A stretch of DNA of 64,000 nucleotides, from assembly GCA_020847535.1 (NCBI GenBank), contig JADLBU010000003.1:29998-93997 (forward strand), in the 5' to 3' direction. Position numbers and translations under genes: made by a program. The stretch comes from Phycisphaerales bacterium. Lineage in GTDB: Bacteria; Planctomycetota; Phycisphaerae; Phycisphaerales; UBA1924. How positions within the stretch are numbered: the stretch's first letter is position 1; the number at the start of each line of letters is the position of its first letter. The notes beneath the pieces are model-generated. The model had not been told where the DNA came from. It worked only from the letters and a program-made list of their open reading frames with translations, and did not search any database. Positions 12,310 through 61,642 of this stretch are shown here, piece after piece.

Positions 12310-12345
12310 GAGGGTGAAAGGGTGAGTGGGTGTGGGGGTGAGGCG
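12306..12345 (+). repeat. 5 x 8-nt array GTGAGAGG GTGAAAGG GTGAGTGG GTGTGGGG GTGAGGCG at the DUF418-1 stop
   Basis: Read directly; the TGA at 12307-09 lies inside the first unit. Also a G3+ x4 quadruplex motif. Confidence 0.85.
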
Positions 12346-13898: not shown

Positions 13899-13910
13899 AA
13901 CTATGTAAGG

Positions 13911-16900: not shown

Positions 16901-17018
16901 GGAGAATGTGGTTGAGGTGGCGCCGCAGGTTGGGGCTGCGGGCAGGTCGAAGTCATCGCGTGATGTTGAGGAAGAGGCTCCTTTTGTGGCGGATGAGGAT
17001 GACGACCGGCGCGAATAG
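13911..17018 (+). CDS. ftsK: DNA translocase FtsK/SpoIIIE
   Basis: 1035 aa. N-terminal TM helices, long Glu/Lys/Gly-rich linker, motor domain PHMLIAGTTGSGKSVCMNTII (Walker A), VFIIDELADLMM (Walker B), and a C-terminal gamma winged helix VSLLQRRLAIGYTRSSRLIDLM. The start could be ATG 13965. Confidence 0.92.
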   Translation: MLRDFSPLLADRADSCRAMGKSVKSSAASKPASAGVLVFRRMVVLIVLAIWTFVIASLIGFDPADPPSHLVWPPNEPVANWCGPVGAHIAYGLYKLLGLGVWVLMLVGAIGILSAAAGQRVSHWVVRALGLLMLTAAASGFQRIVMPNSGPFANLPGGLVGVAGAQRLIDSLGPVGTILSLAIMGVIGAIVAMDEWVTALVGWMWRRGAPAALAAGKTAGAAAGSMAFEASKSTAKASGGALSTLWKRLFPGRAVTRLNDLDDDAMLRSGLVGAGRGVGGGGRDSGRRRRSAKLAAVAAQEEELSAETVGVTDPDEEAARIVEEKPTKRKKKEELNAEVAEGAEGRGEESEEEGDEAAEVIVEKKPLKGKNRPTKYPTLADAARMDDEGVEGATEADDDDKDLPGPAQVYTEAELRAKIDKLPVFFNQNNKQVATDADLAGMQAASSLDDTTYTGGKPYQFPGLDILEQPEENYNSKLESYVREQAVALESAMKQYGIDGEVVGIESGPVITLYDVRLAPGTKVSAVSAVSSDIARALKAVNIRIVSNQVGRDTIGVEVPNAQKEKVRLKELMSKTEYFSSMKLPMFMGKDASGEPLIEDLAKMPHMLIAGTTGSGKSVCMNTIIMGFLYTKKPSELKMVLVDPKMVEMSQFKDIPHLMCPVVTEMAKAAAILEWACVKMDERYELLAEAGCRDISSYNDLTWEEIKERFNCKSDEEAARIPRKLPYMVFIIDELADLMMTAKEVESHIIRIAQKARAVGMHLILATQRPQANVVTGLIKSNMPCRVAFRVASGMDSRIVLDQKGGELLLGHGDMLFLNPRTNKLARAQGTLVDDHEIRRVVRFMRDVAAPSFERSLMSLRRAEQTDEERAMQSANNSSASLAAAQEDPLFPKAVEIVLETKRGSVSLLQRRLAIGYTRSSRLIDLMGIAGIISDHKGSVARDVLITQSEWDAMKKLAAEQGVDMSGEVQGDLFASGGAVEGAIADRAEEPMIPSGPENVVEVAPQVGAAGRSKSSRDVEEEAPFVADEDDDRRE

Positions 17019-17128: not shown

Positions 17129-18307
17129 TCAATACATGTCTGTGAGCCAGGGTGTTGATTCGCAGAAGATGTTCGCGGCGAGCAGGTCTTTGGGTGTGCC
17201 GTGGGCCCAGCCGAGGATCGCGGCCTGGGTGGGGGTCACGAAGCCACAGTAGATCGAGGCGAGCGCGTTGATGGTGAGCTGGATCGCCCCCGAGCCGCCG
17301 GGGGTTGCGGTCGCCTTGCCGTTCTCGACGGTGATGATGAACTTGCCGTTGTTGGCGGGGATGAGGGGATCGGAGACATCGAAGTGGACCTCGCCGCGGG
17401 TTGTGGGATTGAAGCCGCGGGCGGCGATCGCGGATTTGAGATCGAGGATGCGATTGAGGTGGGTGTCCTTGACGCTCATGCGGTGGCGCTGCTGGGGGAG
17501 GAGGAGGAGCGCGGGGTGCGTGGGGCCGCCATAGAAGCCAAGATCCTCGGCCATGGAACCGAAATCGGCGAGCAAGCCAAGGAGGCGGCGAGCGGCCTCG
17601 GGTGTGGTGAAGACCAGATCCGAGAGTTCGAGGTTGTGGCGGCCACTGTCAGGCCGGCGCTGCTGGCTCAGGTAGAAGTAGCCATCGAGGCCGCCTGCGG
17701 GGTTGCGGACTCCAAAGGGGGAGAACTCGGTGCCGCGGAGGTTGCGGATGCGTTTCCAGATGTAGTCCCCGCGATCGAGGAAGCCATCGTGGACGCGGGC
17801 CATCGCGGCGTAACAGGCGTGGATCCCGGGGATGTCGGTTTCGGAGAGGGGTTCGACCGCGCCCGCGCGGAGGCGCTCGGTGATCCAGGACATGCCGATC
17901 TCGATGCGGAAGCGGTGGGCGGCCTGCTCGAAGCCGATCTGACGATAGAGGGTCTGGGTGGAGGCGTAGAGGCCCGACAGGCCGAAGCCATCGGCGGCGG
18001 CTTCCTGCATGGCGAGCTGCATCATGCGCTTGGCGTAGCCGTTGCCGCGTGATTCGGGAGGGACGGCGACGGCGGCGATCCCCAGGAGGCTGACGGACCG
18101 GCCGCCGAAGTACTGGCCCATGGGGATGCGGACCAGGCATGCAACGGGCTTGCCCTGATCCCGGAGGATGCGGAAGTTCTGGTGCCCTGCACCCTCGATC
18201 CAGGTGATCGCCTGGTCGTGGGCGGAGGTGAAGGCGTGATAGATGAAGCGGGCGATCGCGTGGATGTCGGCGGTGTCGTTGATGCCGGTGAGGATCGGGT
18301 CTGGCAT
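17129..18307 (-). CDS. GNAT N-acetyltransferase with C-terminal SCP2-like domain (Eis-like)
   Basis: 392 aa. GIAAVAVPPESRGNGYAKRMMQLAMQEAAADGF acetyl-CoA-binding motif. Three-domain length and layout as in Eis-type enzymes. Confidence 0.7.
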   Translation of the reverse strand: MPDPILTGINDTADIHAIARFIYHAFTSAHDQAITWIEGAGHQNFRILRDQGKPVACLVRIPMGQYFGGRSVSLLGIAAVAVPPESRGNGYAKRMMQLAMQEAAADGFGLSGLYASTQTLYRQIGFEQAAHRFRIEIGMSWITERLRAGAVEPLSETDIPGIHACYAAMARVHDGFLDRGDYIWKRIRNLRGTEFSPFGVRNPAGGLDGYFYLSQQRRPDSGRHNLELSDLVFTTPEAARRLLGLLADFGSMAEDLGFYGGPTHPALLLLPQQRHRMSVKDTHLNRILDLKSAIAARGFNPTTRGEVHFDVSDPLIPANNGKFIITVENGKATATPGGSGAIQLTINALASIYCGFVTPTQAAILGWAHGTPKDLLAANIFCESTPWLTDMY

Positions 18308-18366: not shown

Positions 18367-18493
18367 GAGTTCACCACGGAGGGCACGGAGAGCCACGGAG
18401 AAAGGCGAAGACGGTGTAAAGACATTGTGATGTTCGTCCGCCTCAATGATCTGTCCCTCTCTGTGGCCCTCTGTGCACTCCGTGGTGAGTCTT
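18367..18493. repeat. CAC(A/G)GAG word-hairpin element, copy 2
   Basis: Left arm gagttcaccacggagggcacggagagccacggagaaagg (18367-18405); right arm ccctctctgtggccctctgtgcactccgtggtgagtctt (18455-18493). Followed by GCTTTTTG (T5 at 18496-18500), 37 nt before the aminopeptidase ATG. Confidence 0.8.
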
Positions 18494-31685: not shown

Positions 31686-32388
31686 GTGTCGATGAAGCCG
31701 TGAGCGGCGTTCTGCCCGGAGCTGGATTTCGAAGCTCCGCCGCCCTGAGAGAGGGGCTTCTTCCTGACAAGATCTCGCGGGTGGGTCTGCGAAAGACCTC
31801 TTTGCCGTCCGGAGCTTGTCACGAGTGGGCGTCGTGAGCGGGGGACTGTCTTGATCGGGCGCGTGCGATGGGCGCCGTTGGGTATTGCCGCGAGCGTGGT
31901 GTGGTGCGCCGAGGGCGCTTTTCCCAATCACCTGTGGCGAAGGCCCACGACAAAGATCGATTCCGGGCCGGGTTGTGACCGGCCGTGTGTTTGGAAGGGG
32001 TTGGCAGGAAGGAATCGGGTTGAGTGCTTCCCGCGATCGCGGGGCTCACATCATGCGGGGATCTGATCGCGGCGTGGGCTTGTGCCCGGCTGAGATGGCA
32101 AGTCGGCAGCGCCCGGATGAGGGAGGCTGTCGTGGATCCCGAGAGGTTTTGGCGGTGAAAGCGGGTTGACCGGGCGCTTGCAGCGCTGCCGGCCTCATGC
32201 TCATCACGGGCCGCATGTTCGGATTGATCGCGCCCGTTCCACGTAAGGAACCGGTGACGCTTGGCCGCGATGGATCCCTTTCGACGGGATCCCGCTCGCG
32301 GGGACTGATTGCGCTTGGGAGCTTGTCCAGCCGCGGCGGGTGAACCGTCCGCGCGAGCGCTGTCTCAAATGCGGAGGCATGGCTGAAA

Positions 32389-33762
32389 GTGGGACCACGG
32401 CGTTCACGACGGGGCGGACGGAACCAGGGAAGCAACTCTGGCGGCCAGTATTACCACGGCCCGAGAGCGGGCGGTGGTGGTGGTGGAGGTGGGGGTAGCG
32501 GTGGAAGTGGTGGCGGTGGTGGGGGTGGAGGCGGCGGCCGCGGTCATCGCGGTGGGTATGGAGGTGGGGGTGGAGGCGGTAGTGGAGGTGGTGGTGGCGG
32601 AGGTGGGGGAGGTGGGGGGCGATACAGGTCGAATGGGCAGCCTGGCGGGCATCGCCGGGGCGGTCCGTTCCGCAGCGGGGGATATGGTGGGGGCGGCGGG
32701 CATGGCGGAGGTCGTGGCGGGGACAGGGGCGGCGGATACGGTGGGCCGTTGCGGATCACCGAGCTCGAATCGCTGTCTTTGGATGGCCTGGCGCCGATCA
32801 AGCCGTTCGAGGAATTGACGAGCATCGATCCACAGCCACGGCTGACGCTCGAGTACCCGGGGTGCCCGGCCTCGTGCCGGCTGATCGATCTGTTCTGCCC
32901 GATCGGACGCGGCCAGCGCGGGTTGATCGTGAGCCCGCCCAAGGCGGGCAAGACGACGCTGCTCAAGGACATCGCCGGGTCGATCCTTCGGAATCACCCG
33001 GAGATGGAGGTCGTCGTCCTGCTGGTGGATGAGCGGCCCGAAGAGGTGACGGATTTCCGCAGGACGTTCGCGCCCAGGCCGGCGCGGGCGATGGCGGCGG
33101 GAGAGTCAGCGCTCAACGCGTTGCTCGAGGCCGCGGTCGATCCGGTGCAGCAGATGCCGTTCAACCCGGCGCGCGTACGGGTGATCGCCAGCAGCAACGA
33201 CCACGATGTCGACACCCACGTGCAGGTGGCGATGCAGACGATCGAGCGCTGCAAGCGGCTGGTCGAGTGCGGCAGGCACATCGTCGTGGTCCTGGATTCG
33301 CTGACGCGATTGGGGAGGGCGTTCAACAACAGCCGCAGGTTCGCCAGCAGCGGCAGGACTATGACGGGCGGGCTTGATTCGCGGGCGCTGGAGATTCCCA
33401 AGCAGCTCTTCGGGAGCGCTCGCAACACCGAGGAGGCGGGCTCCTTGACGATCATCGCCTCGTGCCTTGTCGATACCGGCAGCGCGGGGGACCAGGTGAT
33501 TTTCGAGGAGTTCAAGGGGACGGGGAACATGGAGCTGATTTTGGATCGGAAGATCAGCGATCAGCGGCTGTTCCCGGCGATCAACCTGGCGGCGAGCGGG
33601 ACGCGGAAAGAGAACCTCTTGATGAGCGATGCGGAGCTGAAGACGATGACAGCGCTGCGCCGGCGGCTGATGACAATGCATCCGCCGCAGCAGGTGGAGC
33701 AGCTCTTGGCGGCGCTAAAGAGGTTTCCGACGAACGCGGCGCTGGTAGGGAGTGTGGGGTAG
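32389..33762 (+). CDS. rho: Transcription termination factor Rho, atypical: Gly/Arg/Tyr-rich N-terminus in place of the OB-fold RNA-binding domain
   Basis: 457 aa, GTG start (GGAGG 11 nt upstream). The C-terminal about 335 aa is collinear with the E. coli Rho ATPase domain: CPIGRGQRGLIVSPPKAGKTTLL, VVLLVDERPEEVT, VVLDSLTRLGRAFN, GSLTIIASCLVDTGS..DQVIFEEFKGTGNMEL.L.R, FPAINLAASGTRKE. The first about 120 aa are (G)n/RGG/YGG only. Confidence 0.85.
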   Translation: MGPRRSRRGGRNQGSNSGGQYYHGPRAGGGGGGGGGSGGSGGGGGGGGGGRGHRGGYGGGGGGGSGGGGGGGGGGGGRYRSNGQPGGHRRGGPFRSGGYGGGGGHGGGRGGDRGGGYGGPLRITELESLSLDGLAPIKPFEELTSIDPQPRLTLEYPGCPASCRLIDLFCPIGRGQRGLIVSPPKAGKTTLLKDIAGSILRNHPEMEVVVLLVDERPEEVTDFRRTFAPRPARAMAAGESALNALLEAAVDPVQQMPFNPARVRVIASSNDHDVDTHVQVAMQTIERCKRLVECGRHIVVVLDSLTRLGRAFNNSRRFASSGRTMTGGLDSRALEIPKQLFGSARNTEEAGSLTIIASCLVDTGSAGDQVIFEEFKGTGNMELILDRKISDQRLFPAINLAASGTRKENLLMSDAELKTMTALRRRLMTMHPPQQVEQLLAALKRFPTNAALVGSVG

Positions 33763-38724: not shown

Positions 38725-39321
38725 ATGCTCGCACCAGGCGCATCGGCGTACACCATTGCTCGGCCTACGGGTCAGTGTGCTTCCACGGGGAAGCCGATCC
38801 CGGTGGGTGAGCGGTTCACCGCGTGCCTGGTCGAGGTGGAGGGGGAGCAGGAGCTTCGCCGCATCGATTTCTGCCAGGAAGCCTGGGACCATGGCACCCG
38901 GCCCGTTGAGGGTCGCGTGTTCGCGGCGTGGTCGAGCACGATGGCCGAGCCCAACTCCAAGAAGCGGCCGCTCTTGGGTGATGATGAACTGGTGGATATC
39001 TTCGAGCAGCTTGGGACTGCCGTCGAGCATCGCCAGCAGGTGTTCAGGTACCTGCTGACACTGGCGCTCGTGCGTCGGCGCATGCTCAAGTACGAGGGGA
39101 TGAAGGGGTCGGTGATGATGGTTCGGCCGCGAACACCGGCGGGTTCGGAGCCGGCAGCGCTGGTGGAGGTGGTCGATCCGGGGATGGATGAGACGGCGAT
39201 CGGGGAGGCGATGGAGGAATTGGCGAAGGTGATCCCGCTGGATGAGCCGGCGGCGGGTAGTGGGGGTAGTGGGGGTAGTGGGGGTAGTGGGGGTAGTGGG
39301 GGTAGTGGGGGTCAGGCGTGA
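38725..39321 (+). CDS. Hypothetical protein with C-terminal (GSG)n tail
   Basis: 198 aa. Balanced globular sequence (..RQQVFRYLLTLALVRRRMLKYEG..) ending AAGSGGSGGSGGSGGSGGSGGQA, which is encoded by the 9-bp tandem repeat. Confidence 0.55.
   Translation: MLAPGASAYTIARPTGQCASTGKPIPVGERFTACLVEVEGEQELRRIDFCQEAWDHGTRPVEGRVFAAWSSTMAEPNSKKRPLLGDDELVDIFEQLGTAVEHRQQVFRYLLTLALVRRRMLKYEGMKGSVMMVRPRTPAGSEPAALVEVVDPGMDETAIGEAMEELAKVIPLDEPAAGSGGSGGSGGSGGSGGSGGQA
39255..39312 (+). repeat. Perfect 9-bp tandem repeat (GGGTAGTGG)6 plus a partial copy = (GGGGGTAGT)n
   Basis: Read directly: gggtagtgg x6 from 39255 to 39308, then gggt. In frame with CDS 38725..39321. Ends 6 nt before the GTG (39318) of the next gene. 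Confidence 0.95.
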
Positions 39322-40262
39322 ATCGGTATTTTGCGGCGATTGCGGGGATCGTGGCGGTCATCGTGTGCGCGGGGCTCATCGGCTGCGCGGATCAGAACAA
39401 GGTTGGCGAGGAGCCGGTCGATGTGGAGCCCGCGGGGCCCCCGCTTTCACCGGAGGCGATCGCATCGGCGTACAACCCATCGGTGGTGAAGGTCGATCGC
39501 CTGTGGGCGCGCACGGAGCTGCGCATCACCGGCACCGATGACAAGGGTGAGGCGTTCGATGAGACCGCCGAGGGGCACTTCCAGTTCATTCGCCCCCGAG
39601 GGCTGGCGCTGACGGTCAACAAGCTGGGTGAGACGTATTTCTGCCTGGGATCCAACGACACCCAGTACTGGTGGATGGACCTGCGCAAGCCGCGCAACGC
39701 GCTCTTGGGGGATCATGCCAAGGCCTCGCCGCGGATCGCCGCGCGCTTCGGGGTGCCGGTGCATCCGCTGGATCTGATCGACCTGATGGGCATCCTGCCG
39801 GTGCAGGCCAAAGGTTCGCGGACGGCCTGGTCGAAGGATGGCAGGCACATCGTGCTGTCGGGTCCGAGCCGGTGGGGTCGCAAGGAGATGTTGTTTTCCT
39901 CCGATGGACGCACGCTGATGGGCGTGCGGCTCTTGACAAGCCGCAACGAGCTGTTGTGCGAATCGGAGCTGGGGGAGACTTCGCCGGTCGAGTTCCGGGA
40001 AGCGCCGGATGCGACCGCGATCGTGCCCGTCCGCATCACGCTGCACATCCCATCGCGGGGGACGGAAGTGTCGATCCGTCTGTACGATCCGCAGAATCGC
40101 GGGGCCGCGATGAAGAAGACGGTGTTCGATCCGCAGGCGCTGCTCTCGGCGTACAACATCGAATCATCGCGCGTGCGGCTGATCGACCAGGAGCCATCCG
40201 CTACTCCGGCCCGCACCATCCCGCCCACCTCCCCCTCCGCCGCCACGCCTGACCGTGATTGA
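39318..40262 (+). CDS. Lipoprotein, unknown function
   Basis: 314 aa. MNRYFAAIAGIVAVIVCAGLIGCADQN (lipobox LIGC). GTGA overlap with the upstream stop. Confidence 0.6.
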   Translation: MNRYFAAIAGIVAVIVCAGLIGCADQNKVGEEPVDVEPAGPPLSPEAIASAYNPSVVKVDRLWARTELRITGTDDKGEAFDETAEGHFQFIRPRGLALTVNKLGETYFCLGSNDTQYWWMDLRKPRNALLGDHAKASPRIAARFGVPVHPLDLIDLMGILPVQAKGSRTAWSKDGRHIVLSGPSRWGRKEMLFSSDGRTLMGVRLLTSRNELLCESELGETSPVEFREAPDATAIVPVRITLHIPSRGTEVSIRLYDPQNRGAAMKKTVFDPQALLSAYNIESSRVRLIDQEPSATPARTIPPTSPSAATPDRD

Positions 40263-40280: not shown

Positions 40281-42098
40281 ATGTTGAGAACGATCCGAAC
40301 TCTCCTGAGATCCGCGCGGCCGATCGCGTGGGTGTGCGCGCTTGCAGTGATCGGCACATGCATCGCGCCGGCGCTGGCGGCCCCGCAGTCAAGCCTGGCG
40401 CCCGTGTTGCCGGGGGCGGGGAGCCTGGACAGCCCGGACCTGGGGCGAGCCGGGACCTCGCACGGTTGGATGGTCGTGCAATCGGGCGACACGCTGGCGC
40501 TGATCCATATCCCGCCGCGGACCAGCGCGCAGGCCGGCGCATCGGGAGTGCTCGCCGCCGGGGGCGGCAGCGTGCGGCTGGTGATGCCGCTCGAACGCTC
40601 CCCCGAGGGGATCGCGGCGATCGATGAGCGGGTGTACCTGGCGTTTGATGTCCGCGACTCGACCGGTCAGTTGATTCAGCGCGAGGTGCGCTCGGTCGCG
40701 GCGATCCGTTCCGGGCTTGGGGCTTTGTGGAGGTTCGAGCCGGCGGCGGATCTCTTGACGCACCCTGTGTTGCCGACGTCGGGGCGGCTCTTGGGGATGG
40801 GCGCGGCGGGGCAGACGCTGGTGGCGATCATGTCGGAGCGATCCCGGCGCGGGGAATCATCGCCGGTGATCCACGCGCTCGATCAGGATCGCTGGCGAGA
40901 GGCGCAGTTGCCGGATGAGCTTGCCGGGTTGATCAGCGGGCAGCCATCGCCGCTGCGCGTGGTCTCGATGCGAGGCGGAGTGGGTCTGGCGGTGGCATCG
41001 TCGCGGGAGCGGCTTGATGTGTGGGTGGGGCAGGTGCGGTTTCCGAGGCCAACCTCTTCGCGGCGATTCGGGGACTTTGATGATGGACCGGTGCTGACGC
41101 GACCGGCGAACCCTCGGCCGGTCGAGGCGCCGCCGGAGGAGGCTCCGGAGTGGACATGGACCAGGCGATCGCTGAGCCTGGATCCGGCGCAGGTGGATGT
41201 GATCGCGGCCGGAACACTGCTGGAGTGCTCGGGGGCGCTGGTTTGGGTCGAGCCGATCCCCGGGGGTCGCGTGCGGCTGACCGAACTGACCGAGGCGGGC
41301 TCGTTCCCGATCGCGACCATTGATGGTGTTGCTCCTCCGGTAACCGCTGCCTCGCTCGATGGGGATGGCCGGATCGCCCTGGTCTGGTCACAGCTTGATG
41401 AGCCTGGGAGCGAGGATTCACCGCTCAAGCCCTCAAGCCCCAAGCGCAGGTACGAGGTCCGGGAGATCTCCGCGCACACGGGACGGGTACTGTACGCGGG
41501 GCCGGCCAAGAGCCTGGGGCCTGTGAGCCCGACGGACCTGCGGCTGCTCTCGACCGCGCTCTTGGCGACCATGGGGGTGGTGTTGCTCCTGGTCCTGCGG
41601 CCGGATCCCAGCGATGGGGTGGTCACGATCCCGCCGGGGTTTGCGCTCGCCGAGGCGGGGCGGCGGTTCTTTGCCGCGCTCGCGGACACGGCGATGGCTC
41701 TGTGGATCTCGTCGGTGCTGTGGGGGATCGACATGGGCACGATCCTCTCCCCGGATGGGATGATCGGGGGGGAGACGTGGGTGGTGGTGGGGTCGGGGAT
41801 AGGGATCGCAATCGTGATGGGGACGATCGGCGAGTGGAGGACGGGCCGGTCCCCCGGGAAGCTCTTGACCGGGTGCGAGGTGATCTCGATCGCTCGCACG
41901 GGGCTCGTGGGAGAGGCCGGGCATGTCCCCCGGCCGGGATTCTGGCGTGCCCTGGAGCGGAATGTCCTCAAGTGGCTGCTTCCGCCGATGGCGATGCTGG
42001 GGTTGTTTGACCAGCAGGGCCGGCACCGCGCGGACATGATGGCCCGGACGCTGGTGGTGGTGCGTTGGGAAGAGGATCAGGACCAGGATGAGTCGTGA
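40281..42098 (+). CDS. RDD-family membrane protein with large N-terminal extracytoplasmic domain
   Basis: 605 aa. Signal peptide ARPIAWVCALAVIGTCIAPALAAPQ; C-terminal TM segments with GRSPGKLLTGCEV and RHRADMMARTLVVV, typical of RDD domains. Confidence 0.65.
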   Translation: MLRTIRTLLRSARPIAWVCALAVIGTCIAPALAAPQSSLAPVLPGAGSLDSPDLGRAGTSHGWMVVQSGDTLALIHIPPRTSAQAGASGVLAAGGGSVRLVMPLERSPEGIAAIDERVYLAFDVRDSTGQLIQREVRSVAAIRSGLGALWRFEPAADLLTHPVLPTSGRLLGMGAAGQTLVAIMSERSRRGESSPVIHALDQDRWREAQLPDELAGLISGQPSPLRVVSMRGGVGLAVASSRERLDVWVGQVRFPRPTSSRRFGDFDDGPVLTRPANPRPVEAPPEEAPEWTWTRRSLSLDPAQVDVIAAGTLLECSGALVWVEPIPGGRVRLTELTEAGSFPIATIDGVAPPVTAASLDGDGRIALVWSQLDEPGSEDSPLKPSSPKRRYEVREISAHTGRVLYAGPAKSLGPVSPTDLRLLSTALLATMGVVLLLVLRPDPSDGVVTIPPGFALAEAGRRFFAALADTAMALWISSVLWGIDMGTILSPDGMIGGETWVVVGSGIGIAIVMGTIGEWRTGRSPGKLLTGCEVISIARTGLVGEAGHVPRPGFWRALERNVLKWLLPPMAMLGLFDQQGRHRADMMARTLVVVRWEEDQDQDES

Positions 42099-42123
42099 GT
42101 GCTGAGTCCTGAGTCGTGGGTCG
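42089..42123 (+). repeat. 5 x 7-nt array GAGTCGT GAGTGCT GAGTCCT GAGTCGT GGGTCGT straddling the RDD-gene stop
   Basis: Read directly; the TGA at 42096-98 lies inside the array. Confidence 0.85.
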
Positions 42124-42263
42124 TGTGCCGATTGCGCAAACTTGGCCCGTCGGGGTGAAGACAAGCCCCTGGTTTACCCGATAACTCCACCAAGTCGCGG
42201 CGGATGTTGCGCGTTTTTGTGAATGGGCGGGCCTCCGGTGCGGCTTGAAGTCGGGATGGCTCC

Positions 42264-51545: not shown

Positions 51546-52586
51546 TTGACTCGCAAGCCCAACGAAAAACTCCCCGACGATCCGTCGCAGTTGGATGGCA
51601 TGACCAAGGCGGCGATCCTGCTGCTGGCGATCGGCACCGAACGGTCGGCGATGATCCTCAAGAAGATGGCGCCGGATGCAGTGCAGGAGTTGACGCGTGA
51701 GCTGGCGAGCCTGGGCCGGGTGCCGCGCCCGCTGCAGGATGCGGTGGTCGAGGAGTATTACGGGTTGTCGATGGCCTCGCAGTACGCAACCGAGGGCAAC
51801 CTCGACTTTGCCAAGCAGCTGCTGATGGAGTCGATGGATCCCAAGGCCGCCGAGAAGGTGCTCGCCGGCATCCAGGTGCAGGTCCAGAAAACACCCTTTG
51901 CGTTCCTCCAGCGGGCCGAGAGCGAGAACCTGCTGACGTTCATCCAGGATGAGCACCCCCAGACGATCGCCCTGATCGTGTGCCACCTGCCGCATCACAA
52001 GGCCGCCGAGATCCTCGGGGGCCTGCCCATGCAGAAGCAGATCGAGGTCATCAAGCGGATCGCCAACATGGAGCAGACCAACCCGGAGGTCATCCGTGAG
52101 GTCGAGAAGGGCCTGGAGAGCCGGCTGGCGAACATGCTTGCGCAGAGCATGGAGAAGGCCGGCGGCGTGCCGACGGTTGCCGAGATCCTGAACCTGGCCG
52201 ACCGCGCAACCGAGAAGGCGATCCTGGAGGGGCTCGAGTCCGACGATCCGGACCTGGTCGAGCAGATCCGGCGGCTGATGTTCGTCTTCGAGGACATCAT
52301 GCTGGTGAACGACAAGGGCATCCAGGGTGTGCTCAAGGAGGTGGACAACGAGGAGCTGGCGCTGGCGCTCAAAACGGCATCCTCGGACCTTCAGAACAAG
52401 ATCTTCAAGAACATGTCCGAGCGGGCGGCCCAGCTCATCAAGGAGGACATGGAGTTCATGGGTCCGGTGCGGGTCACGGATGTCGAATCGGCACAGCAGC
52501 GGATCGTCGACATCGTGCGCCGGCTCGAGGAATCCGGGGATGTCATCATCCAGGGCCGCGGTGGAGATTCGGACCTGGTCGTGTAG
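51546..52586 (+). CDS. fliG: Flagellar motor switch protein FliG
   Basis: 346 aa, TTG start. KAAILLLAIGTERSAMILKKM, EHPQTIALIVCHL, MFVFEDIMLVNDKGIQGVLKEV, ERAAQLIKEDMEFMGPVRVTDVESAQQRIVDIVRRLEESG. Confidence 0.92.
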   Translation: MTRKPNEKLPDDPSQLDGMTKAAILLLAIGTERSAMILKKMAPDAVQELTRELASLGRVPRPLQDAVVEEYYGLSMASQYATEGNLDFAKQLLMESMDPKAAEKVLAGIQVQVQKTPFAFLQRAESENLLTFIQDEHPQTIALIVCHLPHHKAAEILGGLPMQKQIEVIKRIANMEQTNPEVIREVEKGLESRLANMLAQSMEKAGGVPTVAEILNLADRATEKAILEGLESDDPDLVEQIRRLMFVFEDIMLVNDKGIQGVLKEVDNEELALALKTASSDLQNKIFKNMSERAAQLIKEDMEFMGPVRVTDVESAQQRIVDIVRRLEESGDVIIQGRGGDSDLVV

Positions 52587-52689
52587 CGAAGCGGCGGGTG
52601 GGCCAGGCGGGGAGGTCGTGGAGGAGATTGGGGGGTTGGCGGAGTGCGTGCGTGATGGAGCGGCAACGTGAACCAAAGGCCCACCGGAT

Positions 52690-53415
52690 ATGGCGCTGAT
52701 ACGAAGAGCCGATGCACTGACCGCCACCCGCGATGCACTGGTGCTCGACCTGGGCGATCTTGCCAGGCAGGGCGAGGCGATCATGCAGAATGCTCGCCAG
52801 CGGGCTTCGGGCGTGATCGAGGATGCCCTGCGCGAGCGCGACAAGCTGCTCGGCGGCGCCCGAGAAGCCGGTCGTACGGAAGGGATTTCGATCGGCCATG
52901 CCGAAGGCTTCGCCAAGGGGCGTGAGGAGGGCAAGACCTCCGCGATCGCGGAATCCAAGCAGAAGATCGCCGCGATCATCGCCGCGTGGACCGCTGCGCT
53001 CGAGCGGTTTGCCGCCGAGCGCGACATGCTTCTGGCCGAGGCGCGCCAGGATGTCCTCCAACTGGCGCTCGAGATCGCCGCACGCATCACGCGGCGAACG
53101 ATCGCCGCCGATCCCACCATCGTCGCGGAGCAGATGGAGGCCGTCCTCTCGCTGGTCGCCAAGCCGACGCGGGCCCGGATCCTCGTACACCCGGAGGATG
53201 AAGCGCTCGCCAAGGACCTCCTACCGGGGATGCTCCCCCGGCTGGTGAACATCCGTCACGTCGATATCACTGCCGATCCCGCGGTCGAGCGCGGCTCCTG
53301 CCGCATGCACTCCGACGGCGGCGCCACCATTGATGCCGACATCGCGATGCAACTCGACAGGATCGCTCAGGCACTCGTGCCCGAAAGGAAGCCGCCCGAG
53401 GGCAGGTCCGAATGA
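52690..53415 (+). CDS. fliH: Flagellar assembly protein FliH
   Basis: 241 aa. Charged coiled-coil N-terminal half, C-terminal VLQLALEIAARITRR..ILVHPEDEALAKD..GSCRMHSDGGATIDADI. Position between fliG and fliI. Confidence 0.75.
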   Translation: MALIRRADALTATRDALVLDLGDLARQGEAIMQNARQRASGVIEDALRERDKLLGGAREAGRTEGISIGHAEGFAKGREEGKTSAIAESKQKIAAIIAAWTAALERFAAERDMLLAEARQDVLQLALEIAARITRRTIAADPTIVAEQMEAVLSLVAKPTRARILVHPEDEALAKDLLPGMLPRLVNIRHVDITADPAVERGSCRMHSDGGATIDADIAMQLDRIAQALVPERKPPEGRSE

Positions 53416-54905
53416 GCGCGGCGACCCACGAAGCTTCGATGGTCCCGGTTATCCCGCTGCTCGCGGGCGCGCGGGAGGTCCTGCGTGGCTTCCAGCCGTT
53501 GCGGGCGGCCGGGGTCGTCACGGCCCTGCGCGGCCTGACGGTCCTGGTCGATGAGCTGCCCGTGCCCGCAGGCTCGCTGGTGTCGATCCGCGCCCGGGGA
53601 GGTCATCCGCACGCGGCCCCGAAAGTCCTCGGCGAGGTCATCGGCTTCACGCGCGAGCACTCGGTTGTGATGACGCTGGGAGACACCGCGGGCATTCGAC
53701 CCGGCGATGAGGTCGTCGGGGAGCAGATCACCCAGACCGCACTGGTGGGCGAGAGCATGCTGGGCCGCTGCATCGATGGCCTCTGCCGGCCGATCGATGG
53801 CGCTGGCCCCATCCACGGACGCATCCCGCTCCAGCTCACCCCGCCGCCCATCGGCTCCCTGAGCCGTCGGCGGATCGTTGAGCCCATGTACACCGGCGTG
53901 CGGGCGATCGACCTGTTCACCACGCTGGGCGGCGGCCAGCGCATGGGCATCTTCGCGGGCCCCGGCGTCGGCAAGAGCACGCTCTTGGGAACGATCGCGG
54001 CGCGGTCGGATGCCGATGTCAACGTGATCGCCCTCATCGGTGAGCGAGGCCGGGAGGTCAAGGATTTCATCGAGCACAGCCTCGGACCCGCGGGCCTGGG
54101 CCGTTCGGTCGTCTTTGTCGCGACCGGGGATGAGTCCCCGCTGATGCGGATCCGCGCTGCCAAAGCGGCCTGCACGCAGGCCGAGTACTTCCGTGCCCGC
54201 GGCAAGCGCGTCATGCTGATGATGGATTCGATCACGCGCTTCGCCCACGCCCAGCGCCAGATCGGCCTGTCGGTCGGAGAGCCCCCGGCGACCAAGGGAT
54301 ACACACCCAGCGTATTCGCGCAGATGGCGCTGCTCTTGGAGAGGGCGGGGGCGATCGAGGGGGGCGCTAGAGACGAAGAGACAAAGAGACAGAGAGACGA
54401 AGCGGCGACTTCTTCCACTCCGTCTCTTCGGGACTCCGTCTCTGCATCTCTTTCCGGCTCCATCACCGGCCTCTACACCATCCTCGTCGAGGGTGATGAC
54501 ATGACCGAGCCGGTCGCGGATGCAGCTCGCGGCATCCTGGATGGTCATCTGATTCTCTCGAGGGCGCTCGCGCAGAAGGCGCATTTCCCGGCGATCGATG
54601 TCCTCGACTCGGTCAGCCGGGTCGCCGACGATGTCTGCGAATCCAAGCACATGGATGCCCGCCGCCAGGTCGTGCGGTTGCTCGCCCTCTACAAGGAAGT
54701 CGAGGACCTGGTCCAGATCGGGGCCTACGCCCGCGGCGCCAAGCCCGAGACCGACATCGCGATCGATCTGCACGATGACATCATCCGCGTGCTGCGCCAG
54801 GGCAAGGCCGATGCGACACCCTTCGACCAGGCGCGGGAATCACTCATCAAGATCGCCCAGCGGTCCGTCGAGCTGCTCGGCAAGGGCGCCAAGGGCCGCA
54901 GGTAA
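53412..54905 (+). CDS. fliI: Flagellum-specific ATPase FliI, with about 29-codon repeat-derived insertion
   Basis: 497 aa. GQRMGIFAGPGVGKSTLLG Walker A, VMLMMDSITRFA Walker B, GSITGLYTILVEGDDMTEPVADAARGILDGHLILSRALA. Extra segment ARDEETKRQRDEAATSSTPSLRDSVSASLS before GSIT. Confidence 0.92.
   Translation: MSAATHEASMVPVIPLLAGAREVLRGFQPLRAAGVVTALRGLTVLVDELPVPAGSLVSIRARGGHPHAAPKVLGEVIGFTREHSVVMTLGDTAGIRPGDEVVGEQITQTALVGESMLGRCIDGLCRPIDGAGPIHGRIPLQLTPPPIGSLSRRRIVEPMYTGVRAIDLFTTLGGGQRMGIFAGPGVGKSTLLGTIAARSDADVNVIALIGERGREVKDFIEHSLGPAGLGRSVVFVATGDESPLMRIRAAKAACTQAEYFRARGKRVMLMMDSITRFAHAQRQIGLSVGEPPATKGYTPSVFAQMALLLERAGAIEGGARDEETKRQRDEAATSSTPSLRDSVSASLSGSITGLYTILVEGDDMTEPVADAARGILDGHLILSRALAQKAHFPAIDVLDSVSRVADDVCESKHMDARRQVVRLLALYKEVEDLVQIGAYARGAKPETDIAIDLHDDIIRVLRQGKADATPFDQARESLIKIAQRSVELLGKGAKGRR
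54369..54455. repeat. AGAC(R)(R)AG word-hairpin element embedded in frame in fliI
   Basis: Left arm agagacgaagagacaaagagacagagagacgaag (54369-54402, 8-nt period); right arm cttccactccgtctcttcgggactccgtctctgcatctctttcc (54412-54455) is its imperfect reverse complement. Confidence 0.8.
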
Positions 54906-54923
54906 CCCAGGAGTCGATTTCGC

Positions 54924-55487
54924 GTGGCAAAGTTCATCTTCAAGCTCGAAGCCGTCCTCGATCAGCGGATCGCCATCGAGCGTCAGAAGCAGCTCGTGGT
55001 TGCCCAGATCGAGCGGGAAAGGCTCGATGCCGAGGAGGACATCCGGGCCCATCAGCGGGCGATCGAGCGCGAGCGCGATGAGCTGCGCGACATGCTCGCC
55101 AGCGAGCAGGCGGCCGTCGATGAAGGCGAGTTCGGCGGTCGTGTCGTCAATCTCGCGGGAGCGCGGTTTCAGGCCGCGGCGGCGATCCGTTTGACGGCCC
55201 GGGCCCAGCAGGCGGTCCTCAGGCTCGCGGGGATTCATCGCCGTCTGGATACCGCCCGGCTCGATCTGCTGCACGCGGCGACCCAGCGCAAGGCCGTCGA
55301 GTTGTTGCGCGAGAAGCAGTACGGGGCATGGCGGATGGAACAGAACCGCAAGGATGCGGCGGGGATCGATGAGATCGCGATCATCCGCGCCGGCCGCGCC
55401 GATCGCGACCGGGACGGCGATGCGGAAACCGGCGATGGCGCTGCCGGGCGCCCCAGTGCCGCCCATGACGAATCGGAGGCCGCATGA
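54924..55487 (+). CDS. fliJ: Flagellar export chaperone FliJ
   Basis: 187 aa, GTG start. MAKFIFKLEAVLDQRIAIERQKQLVVAQIERERLDAEEDI.., coiled coil. Position after fliI. Confidence 0.7.
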   Translation: MAKFIFKLEAVLDQRIAIERQKQLVVAQIERERLDAEEDIRAHQRAIERERDELRDMLASEQAAVDEGEFGGRVVNLAGARFQAAAAIRLTARAQQAVLRLAGIHRRLDTARLDLLHAATQRKAVELLREKQYGAWRMEQNRKDAAGIDEIAIIRAGRADRDRDGDAETGDGAAGRPSAAHDESEAA

Positions 55488-56209
55488 AGACTCTCCTCAC
55501 CGCTCTAACCGTGATCGCGATCGCCAACCTGCTGGCGATCCTCGGCTTCGTCGGCTGGCTCGCCGGTACGGATCGGCTCGACCGCGCCCGCATCGACAAA
55601 ATCCGCACCATGTTCGCCGAGACGATCCCGGCTCAGAACGCGCGAGAGTCCGACGAAGCGGCCAAGATCCAGGCCGCCGCCGCCGCCCAGGAGCAGGCAA
55701 AGAAGGATGCACGGCCGCCCTTGACCGCCTCCGAGCAGCTTGCAGCGCGCGTCGAGGCGACCGAGATTGATCGCCAGCGCGCTGAGCGCCTGCGCCGGGA
55801 GATCACCGACCTTCAGAAGGGCCTGGTCGAGCGCGAAGCACAGGTCGAGAAGCACAAGCAGGAACTGGAGAAGGAGAAGGCCGAGTTTGTAAGGATGCGC
55901 CAGGAGGTGATGGCGACCGAGTCCGATGCACAATTCAAGAAGACACTGACCATCCTCGAGGGGCTCAAGCCCGCCGAGTGCAAGACGACCCTCAAGGAAG
56001 TCATGGCGGCGACCCCCAAGGGGCTGGACCAGGTGGTGTCGTACCTCAACGCGATGGATGACCGTGTCCGCACCAAGGTGATCGGAGAGTTCATCAAGGA
56101 GGATCCCAAGCTGGCCGCCAATTTGCTGGAGCGTCTGCGGGTGCGTGGCACGGAGGTGCCGCCGCCGGTGGAGACGCTCGCCAATGGTGCGGTGGGATCC
56201 AGCAAGTGA
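55484..56209 (+). CDS. YlxF/MotE(FlbB)-like flagellar protein (N-terminal TM, coiled coil, MgtE_N-like C-terminus)
   Basis: 241 aa. TM helix LLTALTVIAIANLLAILGFVGWL, long E/K/Q coiled coil, then ILEGLKPAECKTTLKEVM..VVSYLNAMDDRVRTKVIGEF. Occupies the same position as ylxF in the B. subtilis fla/che operon. Confidence 0.55.
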   Translation: MKTLLTALTVIAIANLLAILGFVGWLAGTDRLDRARIDKIRTMFAETIPAQNARESDEAAKIQAAAAAQEQAKKDARPPLTASEQLAARVEATEIDRQRAERLRREITDLQKGLVEREAQVEKHKQELEKEKAEFVRMRQEVMATESDAQFKKTLTILEGLKPAECKTTLKEVMAATPKGLDQVVSYLNAMDDRVRTKVIGEFIKEDPKLAANLLERLRVRGTEVPPPVETLANGAVGSSK

Positions 56210-56282
56210 ATCTGTCGTATCCGGGCGATTGATCGCCCCGGGTGATGTGCCATCCGGCAACGGTGGCGATGGCTTCCAACCG

Positions 56283-57572
56283 ATGCTCGCCGCGTCGTCC
56301 GATCCTCCCAAGAAGGCAAAGACCGCCCAGTCCGCGCAAATCGAGCGCGACTCCCGCGCCGAAACCGCGGTCGAGGGGCTTGCGGGCATCGATGTCGCGA
56401 TGCTTGCCGCTCACGAACTCTCGCAGCGAGGGAGTGTCAAGCCGACGGTGAACAAGGCGATCAAGGCTGGCCAGGAGCGCAGCGCTGGCTCGCAACACCG
56501 ACAGCCGGCCACCGCCCAGTCGACGGATCAGCGGTCGGGTGAGAGCCTCGCAAGCGCCAATGCTGACCCAGCGACATTGGCCGAACCTACCGGACGGAAG
56601 CGAGTGGCTGCTGAGCATCCGCGTGAAGCGAGATCCGGATCCGCGGTTGAACAGTCTCAGGGCAACCGCAGCCGTGACGGTTCCACTCCGTCCTCATCAC
56701 CAGGCAGCGCCTCACGCTCGTCCGCATCGGGGACTCAGCCTTTCCCGGTACAGGCACCGCAGCGCAGCCCAGCGACGAACCAATTGCCGGTTGCGGTTGG
56801 CGCGATCCCCGCGGCTCCGGCAACACCCGGCCTCGCAAGCCAGTCGCTTGCCAAGCCCGCGACCGCAGCCACCACGGCGATCACCGGTGTTTCGGGGGCT
56901 GGAAGCACCGGCAGGGGTTCCGCGCAGGCGACCCTTGCCAGGCTCGCCAACTCGCGCGGCGGGATGCACTGGGCCGGGGAGCAGGCTCCCGAGTCGGCCC
57001 CCGGCGTACGAGGACAAGCGATGCGCGGGATGTTCGCGGCCTTGCGAACAGGCGGTGATGGGGAGCGTGCAGGATCGGTGACCATGCGGCTGATGCCCGA
57101 GGTGCTGGGAGATCTGAAGGTCTCGATGAGCGTCCGGGATGGTCATGTACGGGCGGCGTTCACTGTCGCGACCGCCGAAGCGCACGCTTCGCTGACCGAG
57201 TCGCTGCCGGAACTGCGCCACCGGCTGGAAGAGCGCGGCCTCATCGTTGACTCGATCCAGATCGAGCATCGGCCATCGGAGGAAGGTTTGGCAAGCAGTT
57301 CGCGGAGCGAGTCGGGGCGCCATGCAGCGCATGAAGGCCCTTCGGGCCAAGACCCGGGTCTGGCCGACAGGGCCGGGGAGGATTGTGCGGGGGATGGGCG
57401 TGGGGCCGGAGGGCGTGGGGGTGGCGGTGGAACCGCCGATGGCAGGGATCGCGATCCGGAGGGTCGTGATCGCCGGGTGCCGGAAGCTCTGATCGCGGAG
57501 GCGATCGGGGATCCAAGCGACATCACGATGTCCAGCGCCGGCCGGAGGCTGAGCCTGGACCTGACGGCTTGA
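56283..57572 (+). CDS. fliK: Flagellar hook-length control protein FliK
   Basis: ORF 56145..57572; start uncertain (GTG 56247 or ATG 56283). Pro/Ala/Ser-rich N-terminal half, C-terminal Flg_hook-type domain VTMRLMPEVLGDLKVSMSVRDGHVRAAFTVATAEAHASLTESLPELRHRLEERGLIVDSIQIEH. Confidence 0.75.
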   Translation: MLAASSDPPKKAKTAQSAQIERDSRAETAVEGLAGIDVAMLAAHELSQRGSVKPTVNKAIKAGQERSAGSQHRQPATAQSTDQRSGESLASANADPATLAEPTGRKRVAAEHPREARSGSAVEQSQGNRSRDGSTPSSSPGSASRSSASGTQPFPVQAPQRSPATNQLPVAVGAIPAAPATPGLASQSLAKPATAATTAITGVSGAGSTGRGSAQATLARLANSRGGMHWAGEQAPESAPGVRGQAMRGMFAALRTGGDGERAGSVTMRLMPEVLGDLKVSMSVRDGHVRAAFTVATAEAHASLTESLPELRHRLEERGLIVDSIQIEHRPSEEGLASSSRSESGRHAAHEGPSGQDPGLADRAGEDCAGDGRGAGGRGGGGGTADGRDRDPEGRDRRVPEALIAEAIGDPSDITMSSAGRRLSLDLTA

Positions 57573-58582: not shown

Positions 58583-58624
58583 CCTCTCCGCTTCGTCTCT
58601 TCATCTCTCCGTCTCTGCTTTCGC
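58583..58624. repeat. Half-copy (CGTCTCT-arm type) of the fliI-embedded element, upstream of flgE
   Basis: cctctccgcttcgtctcttcatctctccgtctctgctttcgc. Compare ccactccgtctcttcgggactccgtctctgc in fliI. Confidence 0.7.
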
Positions 58625-58636
58625 GAAGGTCTCCAC

Positions 58637-60394
58637 ATGGCATCCACGACCGCGATGTTCACCGCTCTCTCGGGAATGACCGCCAATTCCCGCAGCCTCG
58701 ATGTGGTCGGCAACAACATCGCCAACGTCAACACGACCGCGTACAAGTCCAACCGGCTCCTGTTCTCGACGCAGTTCAGCCGCACCTACAGCGCCGGCAG
58801 CGCTCCCAGCGACACCACCGGCGGCACCAACCCGTTCCAGGTCGGCCTGGGCGTGTCGATCGCCGGCACGCAGCGCAACTTCACCGGCGGCACGATCTCG
58901 GCGACCGGGGATTCGCGCGACCTGGCGATCGAGGGGGATGGCTTCTTCATCGTGAACCGCGGAGGTGAGCAGCTCTACACCCGCGCCGGTGCCTTCCGCA
59001 CCAACGCCACCAACGACCTGATCTCCATAACCGGGGATCGCCTCCAAGGCTGGACGGTCGATGCCAACAACAACATCATCGAAGGGGGCCTGGTCAACCT
59101 GAACATCCCCCTGGGCACGATGACGCTCGCGGAGGCAACCGAGAACGTGCGTTTTTCGGGCAATCTCAACGCCAGCGGAGCGCTGGCCAGCCAGGGATCG
59201 GCGATCCGGATCATGGGCACATCGACCACGGGCATGCGGGCGATCGCGACCGCCAGCCCGCCGCCCGGGCCTGGCAATGTGCTCGAAGCCGTCACCCGGC
59301 TCATCGATATTGAGGATCCGGCCCAGCCCGGCAGCGGCACACCGATGCTGAGCGTCGGGCAGTCGCTCTCGTTCACGGGGATTGAGAAGGGCGGCAAGAC
59401 GCTGCGCCCGGCCGAGCTGGCGATCGATGCCACCACGACTGTGCAGGACCTCAACGATTTCCTCACCGATCTCTTGGGGATTGACACCGCATCGGGGGCA
59501 AACCCCGACGGCGCCACCCCCGGTGTTGCCCTCGATCCGGTCACGGGGATCCTGACCGCGACCGGCAACGTGGGCACCGTGAACGACCTGGAGATTGAGG
59601 CCTCCGACATCCAGATCCTGGATTCGGCCGGCGCGTTCGTGCGATCACCGCTCCTCACCGACAAAACCGCCAACGCCGATGGCGAGGCGGTGCGTACGAC
59701 GTTCATCGCCTACGACTCGCTGGGCACTCCGGTCTCCGTCGATGTCGCGATGGTCCTGGACGGCCGCTCGAGCACCGGCACCACCTGGCGATACTTTGTC
59801 GAATCTGCCGACGATACCGATCCATCCACCTTCATCGCCTCGGGCACGCTGGAGTTTGACACAGTCGGTCAGCTCGCGACCCGGGATCCCATCCCGATTA
59901 CCGTCGACCGCGCCAACACCGGCGCTCAGACGCCGCTGACCATCGATCTCTCGTTCGCGGGGGATGAGGACAACGTGACATCCCTGACCGACGACAGCTC
60001 GGCGATCGCCGCAACCTTTGCCGATGGCTCCCCGATCGGCACGCTGACGTCGTACGCGGTGGGAACCGATGGCGTCATCATCGGCTCGTTCACCAACGGC
60101 CTGACCCGCACCATCGGCCAGGTCGTGCTCGCCAAGTTCCCAAACTCCGAGGGTCTGGTCGATGTCGGATCCAACCTCTTCCGGGTTGGATCCAACAGCG
60201 GCACCCCCCTGATCGCCGCCGCCGGCACGCTGGGTTCGGGTCGCCTGGTTGGCGGCGCTCTGGAGCTCTCCAACGTGGACCTGAGCCAGGAGTTCATCAA
60301 CATGATCCTGGCCTCGACCGGCTACTCGGCCTCCTCCCGCGTCATCCGGACCACCGATGAGCTCATGCAGCAACTCCTGGTCCTGGGCCGGTGA
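58637..60394 (+). CDS. flgE: Flagellar hook protein FlgE
   Basis: 585 aa. MFTALSGMTANSRSLDVVGNNIANVNTTAYK.. N-terminus and C-terminal GGALELSNVDLSQEFINMILASTGYSASSRVIRTTDELMQQLL. Confidence 0.92.
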   Translation: MASTTAMFTALSGMTANSRSLDVVGNNIANVNTTAYKSNRLLFSTQFSRTYSAGSAPSDTTGGTNPFQVGLGVSIAGTQRNFTGGTISATGDSRDLAIEGDGFFIVNRGGEQLYTRAGAFRTNATNDLISITGDRLQGWTVDANNNIIEGGLVNLNIPLGTMTLAEATENVRFSGNLNASGALASQGSAIRIMGTSTTGMRAIATASPPPGPGNVLEAVTRLIDIEDPAQPGSGTPMLSVGQSLSFTGIEKGGKTLRPAELAIDATTTVQDLNDFLTDLLGIDTASGANPDGATPGVALDPVTGILTATGNVGTVNDLEIEASDIQILDSAGAFVRSPLLTDKTANADGEAVRTTFIAYDSLGTPVSVDVAMVLDGRSSTGTTWRYFVESADDTDPSTFIASGTLEFDTVGQLATRDPIPITVDRANTGAQTPLTIDLSFAGDEDNVTSLTDDSSAIAATFADGSPIGTLTSYAVGTDGVIIGSFTNGLTRTIGQVVLAKFPNSEGLVDVGSNLFRVGSNSGTPLIAAAGTLGSGRLVGGALELSNVDLSQEFINMILASTGYSASSRVIRTTDELMQQLLVLGR

Positions 60395-61572: not shown

Positions 61573-61642
61573 AGATGGCCAGGGGGCCAGATTCAAGGCA
61601 TTGAGTACTGTGCCGTTGCTGAATCTGGCAATCTGGCCATCT
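61573..61642 (+). other. 70-nt interrupted hairpin between fliL and fliN
   Basis: AGATGGCCAG (61573-82) pairs with CTGGCCATCT (61633-42). GCCAGATTCA (61586-95) pairs with TGAATCTGGC (61620-29). Symmetric 3x3 internal loop; the apical 24 nt contains a further GGCA/TGCC stem. Confidence 0.85.

Follow-up and report, generated by a model that had tools for sequence, protein, structure and literature searches.

Rickettsia palindromic elements (RPEs) are short palindromic repeats that lie in frame within genes unrelated to one another and in many cases essential; their translation adds an extra peptide that does not destroy the protein. In the passages that PMC10969869 devotes to them they measure about 150 bp, and the peptide they encode is conserved within the family. 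MITEs (miniature transposable elements with inverted repeats) appear in the same source as small, non-autonomous, stem-loop repeats with occasional in-frame fusions (PMC10969869). Repetitive extragenic palindromic (REP) sequences are extragenic, palindromic and short, share a common consensus, occur in many copies and are located at gene ends or between cistrons, with which they are co-transcribed (PMC12306157). Here we analyze a hairpin-forming repeat that is located in frame within fliI, the gene of the flagellar type III ATPase, in a Phycisphaerales bacterium (assembly GCA_020847535.1, contig JADLBU010000003.1, positions 29,998 to 93,997). This whole stretch of 64,000 nt (from here: the window) has a G+C content of 65.6%. 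We consider it probable that the insert is a tolerated, translated passenger, namely one copy, lying in frame, of a word-hairpin repeat that is short and interspersed. Such elements would form a class in the Phycisphaerae in which a word of 7-10 nt is repeated in tandem along one arm and its complement along the other.

The host gene and the parts of the insert are the following.

53412-54905, forward strand: fliI, flagellar type III ATPase of 497 aa and host of the insert (Pfam, match to 2dpy, AlphaFold2 model, gene neighbours)
54366-54455, forward strand: in-frame insert of 90 nt, encoding ARDEETKRQRDEAATSSTPSLRDSVSASLS, FliI residues 319-348 (alignment to 2dpy, reading of the open reading frame)
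54369-54405, forward strand: left purine-rich arm, AGAGACGA AGAGACAA AGAGACAG AGAGACGA AGCGG (Tandem Repeats Finder, inverted repeat)
54406-54414, forward strand: spacer (loop) of 9 nt between the arms (inverted repeat geometry)
54415-54451, forward strand: right pyrimidine-rich arm, ACTCCGTCTCT twice (direct and inverted repeat)

The host gene encodes the type III secretion ATPase FliI, on which domain content, fold and gene context agree. The ATP-synt_ab domain (PF00006) covers residues 162-402 (E 3.2e-80) and T3SS_ATPase_C (PF18269) residues 410-478 (E 1.8e-19) in Pfam, and the structure of Salmonella FliI, 2dpy, matches with E 2.5e-93. An AlphaFold2 (AF2) model built from 70 sequences reached a mean predicted local distance difference test (pLDDT) value of 91.3 and a predicted template modelling (pTM) score of 0.89; superposed on 2dpy_A it gave a template modelling (TM) score of 0.96 and a root-mean-square deviation of 1.7 Å. 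The gene is preceded by fliH (FliH, PF02108) and followed by fliJ (FliJ, PF02050). All named relatives of the protein come from Phycisphaerales or Phycisphaerae metagenome-assembled genomes, and among the GTDB species representatives the best match is 71% identical.

A preliminary description of this DNA had read the segment as 8-nt words in an array, followed after a 9-nt spacer by their imperfect complement, and this reading holds. Tandem Repeats Finder reports four AGAGACRR words at 54369-54402 (period 8, 4.2 copies, 84% matches), and the two arms, 37 nt each and 9 nt apart, are 70% complementary. The three-word pattern AGAGACNNAGAGACNNAGAGAC with up to three mismatches was found five times in the window against 0.04 expected from shuffles, and each of the five matches falls either within an arm of the insert or at 58595-58616. 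The encoded peptide stands between ..ERAGAIEGG and GSITGLY and is free of stops in the open reading frame (ORF). The preliminary description had placed the ERAG and GSIT segments of characterised FliI and type III secretion ATPases only a few residues apart, and Salmonella FliI has nothing in place of the insert: HMMER aligns residues 30-318 of the query to 7-301 of the 2dpy chain and 348-477 to 301-430, leaving residues 319-347 unmatched, and in the Salmonella protein ERAGNGIHGG leads directly into GSIT with zero extra residues. The invariant residues stand on either side of the insert (E310, R311, A312 and G313; G349, T352, G353 and Y355), none within it. In the AF2 model the insert begins with a helix at 320-332 (mean pLDDT per 10-residue block about 72) and continues as coil at 64-65, falling below 50 at 340-343, while the framing strands 313-315 and 350-358 both exceed 90. 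Rfam gave no match at gathering score over the whole window; permissive searches at the insert returned weak generic miRNA-hairpin matches only, far under threshold.

Hairpins may lead to mis-assembly, which the preliminary description had named as a concern. The Logan contig L204 (SRR11577118) is 98.77% identical to window positions 51741-57114 (5.4 kb) with 64 mismatches and 2 gaps, and therefore comes from a different strain; its loop DNA equals the window insert base for base, and an identical protein was called there. Thus, the insert is real and no assembly error, as an independent assembly of a second strain agrees.

The codon usage of the insert is foreign, judged from composition: its G+C content is 0.54 and that of third codon positions (GC3) 0.47, compared to 0.69 and 0.87 for the remainder of fliI. 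Eight other inserts in orthologous genes have a GC3 of 0.49-0.79 versus 0.88-0.95 in the flanks, each lower than its own flanks. A perfect (GAGTGACG)n array holds TGA in every frame, and the canonical AGTGACG word gives TGA in each frame within 24 nt. Where a word would set TGA in frame it is altered, to GGA in L003 and to TGG in L206 (L numbers denote loci), while the window (AGAGAC) and L205 (AGTGGC) use words without TGA, with the matching change in the opposite arm (GTCTCT and GCCACT). The frame is kept and stops are avoided in every insert-bearing ortholog examined. This pattern suggests that the insert is translated; the tryptic peptides DEAATSSTPSLR and DSVSASLSGSITGLYTILVEGDDMTEPVADAAR are predicted from it.

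In the 120 Phycisphaerales FliI orthologs considered (60-100% identity in BLASTP), the loop between ERAG and GSITGLY spans 4-48 residues, with 12 or fewer in 69 and at least 25 in 22 of the 120. In 80 GTDB species representatives it has mostly 5-15 residues and is Salmonella-like. The nearest relatives differ from the window: ortholog P0002 (81% identical to the window protein) has a different 28-residue loop, and P0003, P0005 and P0006 (77-79%) have loops of 14 residues. An ancient conserved insert was therefore rejected, given the range of 4-48 residues and loops that are short or different in close relatives. On these alignments the insert is lineage-specific, a question that the preliminary description had raised.

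Long loops are scattered over several separate groups of a neighbour-joining tree, and for most of these proteins the nearest short-loop relative is closer than any long-loop protein beyond their own group. Leaving the loop aside, P0008 (loop of 33 residues) and P0037 (11) have 91% identity; P0052, whose loop has 5 residues, shares 84-85% identity with P0011 and P0022, whose loops have 43 and 48. The window clade is an exception, with 14-28 residues in the loops of its nearest relatives. At the DNA level the alignments of filled and empty sites are clean, with near-identical flanks, for L002 versus L209 (91% amino acid identity outside the loop) and for L003 and L207 versus L210. The same FliI loop thus appears to have been struck several separate, independent times in related bacteria, with different words, which goes further than the preliminary description had suggested. 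In locus L008 (10883-10945) the loop is lengthened in another way: it consists of the tandem peptide repeat AIETS AIQTS AIANT and lacks a hairpin.

The long loops were compared at the DNA level without P0017 and P0064. Clear word-hairpins are present in five of the ten long loops with DNA, built from at least three words (AGAGAC, AGTGAC/AGTGGC and GGGATC). Outside the window genome the long loops read as follows; folding energies are for the plus and minus strands.

L003 (P0011): word GTGACGRA / YCGTCACT, folds of -59.1 and -60.6 kcal/mol, z-scores (z) -5.2 and -7.7
L205 (P0058): word AAGTGGCR / CGCCACTY, folds of -57.7 and -71.3 kcal/mol
L206 (P0086): word CAGTGRCR, folds of -46.8 and -66.7 kcal/mol
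L021 (P0104): unrelated word GGGATCNA, plus-strand fold of -47.8 kcal/mol, z -3.5
L002 (P0008) and L207 (P0022): decayed
L208 (P0013): single-arm array, CACCCTCT
L068: word structure gone

The insert of L001 (P0002) aligns to that of the window and keeps a period-8 G.GAC trace, while its fold is lost (z +1.3). Since the two inserts align and the one in L001 no longer folds, the insertion is older than the split between window and L001 and is decaying in the latter. Similarity of the peptides is a poor guide to such relations: the 8-nt word crosses all three frames in 24 nt, so that (CGTCACTC)n encodes the cyclic peptide RHSVTPSL however it is read in frame, hence the 'TPSLRHSV' shared by distant orthologs is no evidence of common descent.

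The strand opposite to fliI folds clearly better than the sense strand in the window, L205 and L206 and marginally so in L003, with L021 as the exception. For the window insert the sense-strand RNA reaches -40.9 kcal/mol compared to -33.5 for shuffles (z -2.0, with 11 of 200 shuffles equally good) and the antisense strand -48.8 kcal/mol (z -4.4). The asymmetry arises where the sense strand has A opposite C and the antisense strand G opposite U. An A-rich purine arm and a C-rich pyrimidine arm would encode K/E/R/D/T/Q and S/T/P/L, respectively, and the reverse orientation peptides rich in F/L/C/V, so that only a single orientation may survive in a surface loop. The strand asymmetry argues against selection for a hairpin in the sense RNA. 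The z of -2.0, the better antisense fold and the loss of folding in L001 led us to reject, as the principal explanation, a hairpin that functions in the sense-strand RNA; whether the hairpin affects fliI-fliJ translation had been raised as a question, and the same observations lend this no support.

Two hairpins of the same architecture as the fliI insert are located elsewhere in the window, both between ORFs that are supported by GC3.

18371-18488, forward strand: hairpin of three CACGGAG words facing CTCTGTG/CTCCGTG, divergent intergenic, arms of 31 nt that are 87% complementary
5541-5612, reverse strand: hairpin of three CACAGAG words between two minus-strand genes (fold)

The former folds with -68.9 kcal/mol (z -6.1), the latter with -44.1 kcal/mol on the minus strand (z -7.1) and -25.2 on the plus strand. 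Of the three sites at which the preliminary description had seen this architecture, these two were borne out, and the one at 22650 is weak (z -1 to -2). The termini TCACCACGGAG...CTCCGTGGTGA are common to the CACGGAG hairpins at 18371-18488 and at 7525-7750 of L020, a locus whose FliI is about 64% identical to that of the window, and hint at a conserved element end. Further intergenic arrays occur at 12301-12342 (five copies of GAGGGTGA) and 42089-42125 (four copies of TGAGTCC), and at 61573-61642 there is an intergenic hairpin of CCAGATT words with 23-nt arms. The presence of several such arrays in the window shows that word arrays are common in the spacers of this genome. A one-armed array of the ACGCGGAG type at 14918-14952, with the same word as the intergenic site at 22650, lies within ORF 13899-17018; it is in frame (LNAEVAEGAEGRGEE) in the FtsK linker between the 4TM and alpha domains and is possibly a second in-frame array.

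In relatives, word-hairpins occupy spacers of the flagellar operon between fliG and fliH (L003), after fliI (L206) and between fliF and fliG (L208), and in L205 and L207 the words of the respective fliI insert recur at other spacers of the flagellar cluster. The GGATGT-word hairpin of L003 (6186-6334) fills the fliG-fliH spacer, and its right arm reaches the fliH ATG and could mask the start site. In L205 a single-arm array, TTCGTCCCTCTGTCCCTTTGTCCCTCTATCCCT, is located at 17607-17660 downstream of the gene following flgE; word by word it is the reverse complement of the left arm in the window fliI, bar a C/T swap. Ahead of it stands a small hairpin, CGCCAC...GTGGCG, of which two more copies lie at 12747-12790.

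A metagenome scan for GTCWCT words returned at least 120 matches. About half of the matches listed are low-GC (GTCTCTCT)n microsatellites, which were discarded. At least about 25 high-GC contigs carry clean (AGWGACGR)n...(GTCWCTYC)n hairpins, all between ORFs and often between convergent genes, and the GC3 test revealed no convincing in-frame copy among the matches listed. The intergenic hairpin of L188, AGAGACGAAGAGACAAAGAGACGAAGAGACGAAG, has a left arm nearly identical to that of the window; the sole named relative of the neighbouring gene comes from Tepidisphaeraceae. Periodic inverted-repeat detectors were over-strict or caught codon-periodic GC noise, so only arms of at least 32 nt were trusted. 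Literature searches found no description of such word-hairpin repeats in Planctomycetota, and hairpins with tandem-word arms are apparently a repeat class without prior description.

We propose the following scenario for the passenger. The window word AGAGACGR/YCGTCTCT would be a variant of the commoner AGTGACGR/YCGTCACT, and the usual site of the elements would be between genes, including flagellar ones. This copy lies in the ATPase domain, at the loop that joins the ERAG segment to the GSITGLY strand. Our data show that it is in frame, stop-free and outside all invariant catalytic residues, that the remainder of the protein models as a normal FliI, and that in other lineages, too, this loop holds word-hairpins, independent of the one described here. 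The product would be a hydrophilic, poorly ordered surface excursion that is tolerated, not useful, and decays over time. The loop may be hit repeatedly as one of few non-lethal insertion sites in a densely packed flagellar operon. Copies would spread locally inside the operon, because a given genome uses a word peculiar to it at several sites close to one another; they may be copied through mobilisation in trans or through template switching during replication, with a neighbouring copy as the source. The preliminary description had likened the insert to RPE colonisation of an essential gene, and it had named three observations that would speak against this: a homologous insert conserved in all orthologs, a mis-assembly, or the lack of further copies. 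All three were examined. The loop varies between close relatives, a second strain has the same insert, and further copies of the family exist at 58588-58618, in related fliI genes and on the metagenome contigs including L188; the likeness is hence supported.

Several points weigh against this scenario. The independence of the gains is argued from a tree that was not bootstrapped, and within the AGWGRCG words one old insertion followed by many losses would, strictly taken, also fit. Translation is judged from the reading frame. Neither a transposase nor a terminal signature nor a target-site duplication was found, no search having been aimed at REP-associated tyrosine transposases (RAYTs), so that the insert is a putative and not a proven mobile element. 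The hairpin words differ (CACGGAG, GGATGT, GGGATC, AATGGCA and others), and a local mutational process could stand behind them instead of a family. Moreover, the sole other AGAGAC/GTCTCT array in the window is located 4.2 kb downstream of the insert in the leader of flgE, and the complementarity of the two sites, which is paralleled in L021, is unexplained by a pure passenger model.

58588-58618, forward strand: single-arm array of the fliI words, CCGCTTCGTCTCTTCATCTCTCCGTCTCTGC, in the flgE leader; about 19 nt separate its end from the start codon (Tandem Repeats Finder, pattern match)
58637-60394, forward strand: flgE, hook protein, ORF of 585 aa (orthologs in L001, L003 and L205 with Flg_bb_rod, FlgE_D2 and Flg_bbr_C)

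An arm upstream of flgE had been described before at 58583-58624; it exists, with the narrower extent given here. Tandem Repeats Finder reports 58591-58616 with period 8, and the pattern matches with one mismatch. Positions 58588-58600 are an exact 13-nt reverse complement of 54393-54405, and 58607-58618 a 12-nt direct copy of 54434-54445 (CTCCGTCTCTGC). The insert might therefore be kept as RNA: its purine arm would reach across about 4 kb of one polycistronic transcript and pair there with the leader of flgE, which is pyrimidine-rich. We regard this as unlikely. The duplex would control flgE translation or make a site for a double-strand-specific RNase, with the local hairpin as a competing fold; the lineages of the window and of L021 would have evolved it separately from each other, each with a different 8-nt word, and the protein insert would be the cost of the pairing site. 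Equally doubtful is a coupling of hook-protein (FlgE) expression, or of the processing of the mRNA, to the export-apparatus genes upstream.

The left arm of fliI and the flgE leader are predicted to form a duplex of -48.6 kcal/mol (z -4.7), compared to -35.4 (z -2.3) for the arm's own right arm, and the leader is the top plus-strand partner of the left arm throughout the window, the next unrelated site reaching -34.5. In L021, a lineage independent of that of the window, GGGATC arrays are present in the fliI loop, the fliI-fliJ spacer and the flgE leader. The purine array directly after the fliI stop (4838-4880) is almost perfectly complementary to the leader (8695-8753), the duplex spanning 3.9 kb with -64 to -72 kcal/mol (z -6.0), and the segment bracketed by the two sites begins directly behind fliI and extends to the leader of flgE. 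Between fliI loop and flgE leader, 14 and 11 8-mers are shared in the window and L021 loci versus 0-4 in the other 61; a 10-mer sharing test was too noisy and was not used. Across the 63 loci, however, the best upstream partner of the flgE leader scored -52.0 in its own locus and -52.0 in mismatched ones. In addition, L003, L205, L207 and L208 have the fliI insert without a matching flgE leader, the leaders of relatives show no sequence relation to that of the window, and in L001, the sister genome, hairpin and leader array are both gone. The copying of words from site to nearby site, with one word 'dialect' per operon, is the economical reading of the shared words and would yield the same pattern without function.

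A further possibility, which we likewise hold to be improbable, dispenses with an element family: the loop would be a hypervariable low-complexity surface segment in which words arise by replication slippage and the inverted arm by fold-back or template-switch synthesis. A loop length that differs in almost every lineage, the one-armed array of L208, the tandem peptide repeat of L008, the differing words of the hairpins and the fact that neither target-site duplication nor transposase was seen are all consistent with it. Slippage, however, would give head-to-tail copies only, whereas here a complementary arm follows and the words recur at other loci, both elsewhere in the same operon and, in the form of clean hairpins between genes, on contigs unrelated to it; L188 and 17607-17660 of L205 agree with the window arm word for word. 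The termini shared by 18371-18488 and the L020 hairpin also stand against it, and the foreign composition of all inserts together with the clean alignments of filled and empty sites fits a preformed unit better than gradual growth. The idea that the segment is absent from the protein through assembly artefact, ribosomal bypass or RNA removal is scarcely credible: hairpins are known to cause assembly errors and ribosome hopping (phage T4 gene 60), but a diverged strain that was assembled independently shows the same insert without change, the orthologs keep the frame with in-frame TGA edited out, which would be needless if the segment were skipped, and bypass of the T4 gene 60 type involves a stop right after the take-off codon and matching take-off and landing codons around the hairpin, whereas here there is no stop after the take-off codon and none anywhere in the insert.

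Under the passenger reading, this locus would be a second, phylogenetically remote case of palindromic repeats in essential proteins, in free-living planctomycetes and not in reduced intracellular parasites. One loop of a conserved motor ATPase would repeatedly take 20-45 extra residues, pointing to a natural permissive site in FliI and type III secretion ATPases. For annotation, such insertions account for the FliI length range of 442-508 residues in Phycisphaerales. The tandem-word hairpins that populate flagellar-operon spacers in Phycisphaerae may have roles in mRNA stability, in processing or in neither.

Two repeats of other kinds were observed in the window. A perfect tandem array of GGGTAGTGG (6.4 copies, 100% matches) at 39255-39312 is located immediately upstream of, or overlaps, the start of ORF 39306-40262. 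A degenerate GGT/GGN-rich repeat with periods of 6, 9, 12 and 42 at 32469-32618, within ORF 32344-33762, is probably a glycine-rich protein segment.

Compared with known systems, the insert shares with bacterial MITEs (Correia, ERIC, Chunjie) that it is a small stem-loop repeat. MITEs have terminal inverted repeats, target-site duplications and a parent insertion sequence and are usually AT-rich, whereas none of this was seen here: no insertion sequence was seen near the insert, and the filled and empty alignments contain no clear target-site duplication, although the Gly codons (GGC/GGG) on both flanks would hide one of 3 nt. Among other repeats, the foldback (FB) transposons of Drosophila have the same architecture of long inverted arms made of short tandem subrepeats; they are eukaryotic, kilobase-sized and transposase-linked. 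The cyanobacterial short tandemly repeated repetitive (STRR) sequences consist of tandem 7-nt words, are intergenic and belong to one bacterial lineage, and are described as direct arrays, not hairpins. We know of no STRR in frame in an essential gene, and a literature search on cyanobacterial STRR hairpins returned nothing relevant.

REP sequences and their BIME and REPIN relatives are likewise short and hairpin-forming, and the intergenic word-hairpin copies are similarly placed. REPs, however, measure 14-40 nt, have one consensus per genome, are linked to RAYTs and bear a conserved 5' tetranucleotide of the GTAG type, whereas here the arms are periodic, the words vary and one copy is intragenic. 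Set against the defining features of REPs, the insert is palindromic and short and its kin are extragenic, while this copy is intragenic and only two arrays of its word occur in 64 kb. With RPEs it shares that a palindromic repeat lies in frame in a protein gene and is read through. It differs, by description only, in its Phycisphaerales host, its 90 nt, its arms of 8-nt tandem words and a peptide that is set by the word alone; repeated independent strikes on one loop are a further difference, not being mentioned for RPEs in the passages concerned of PMC10969869. Set apart on these descriptions, the insert would behave like an RPE yet stand outside the RPE family, from which it differs in phylum, size and architecture.

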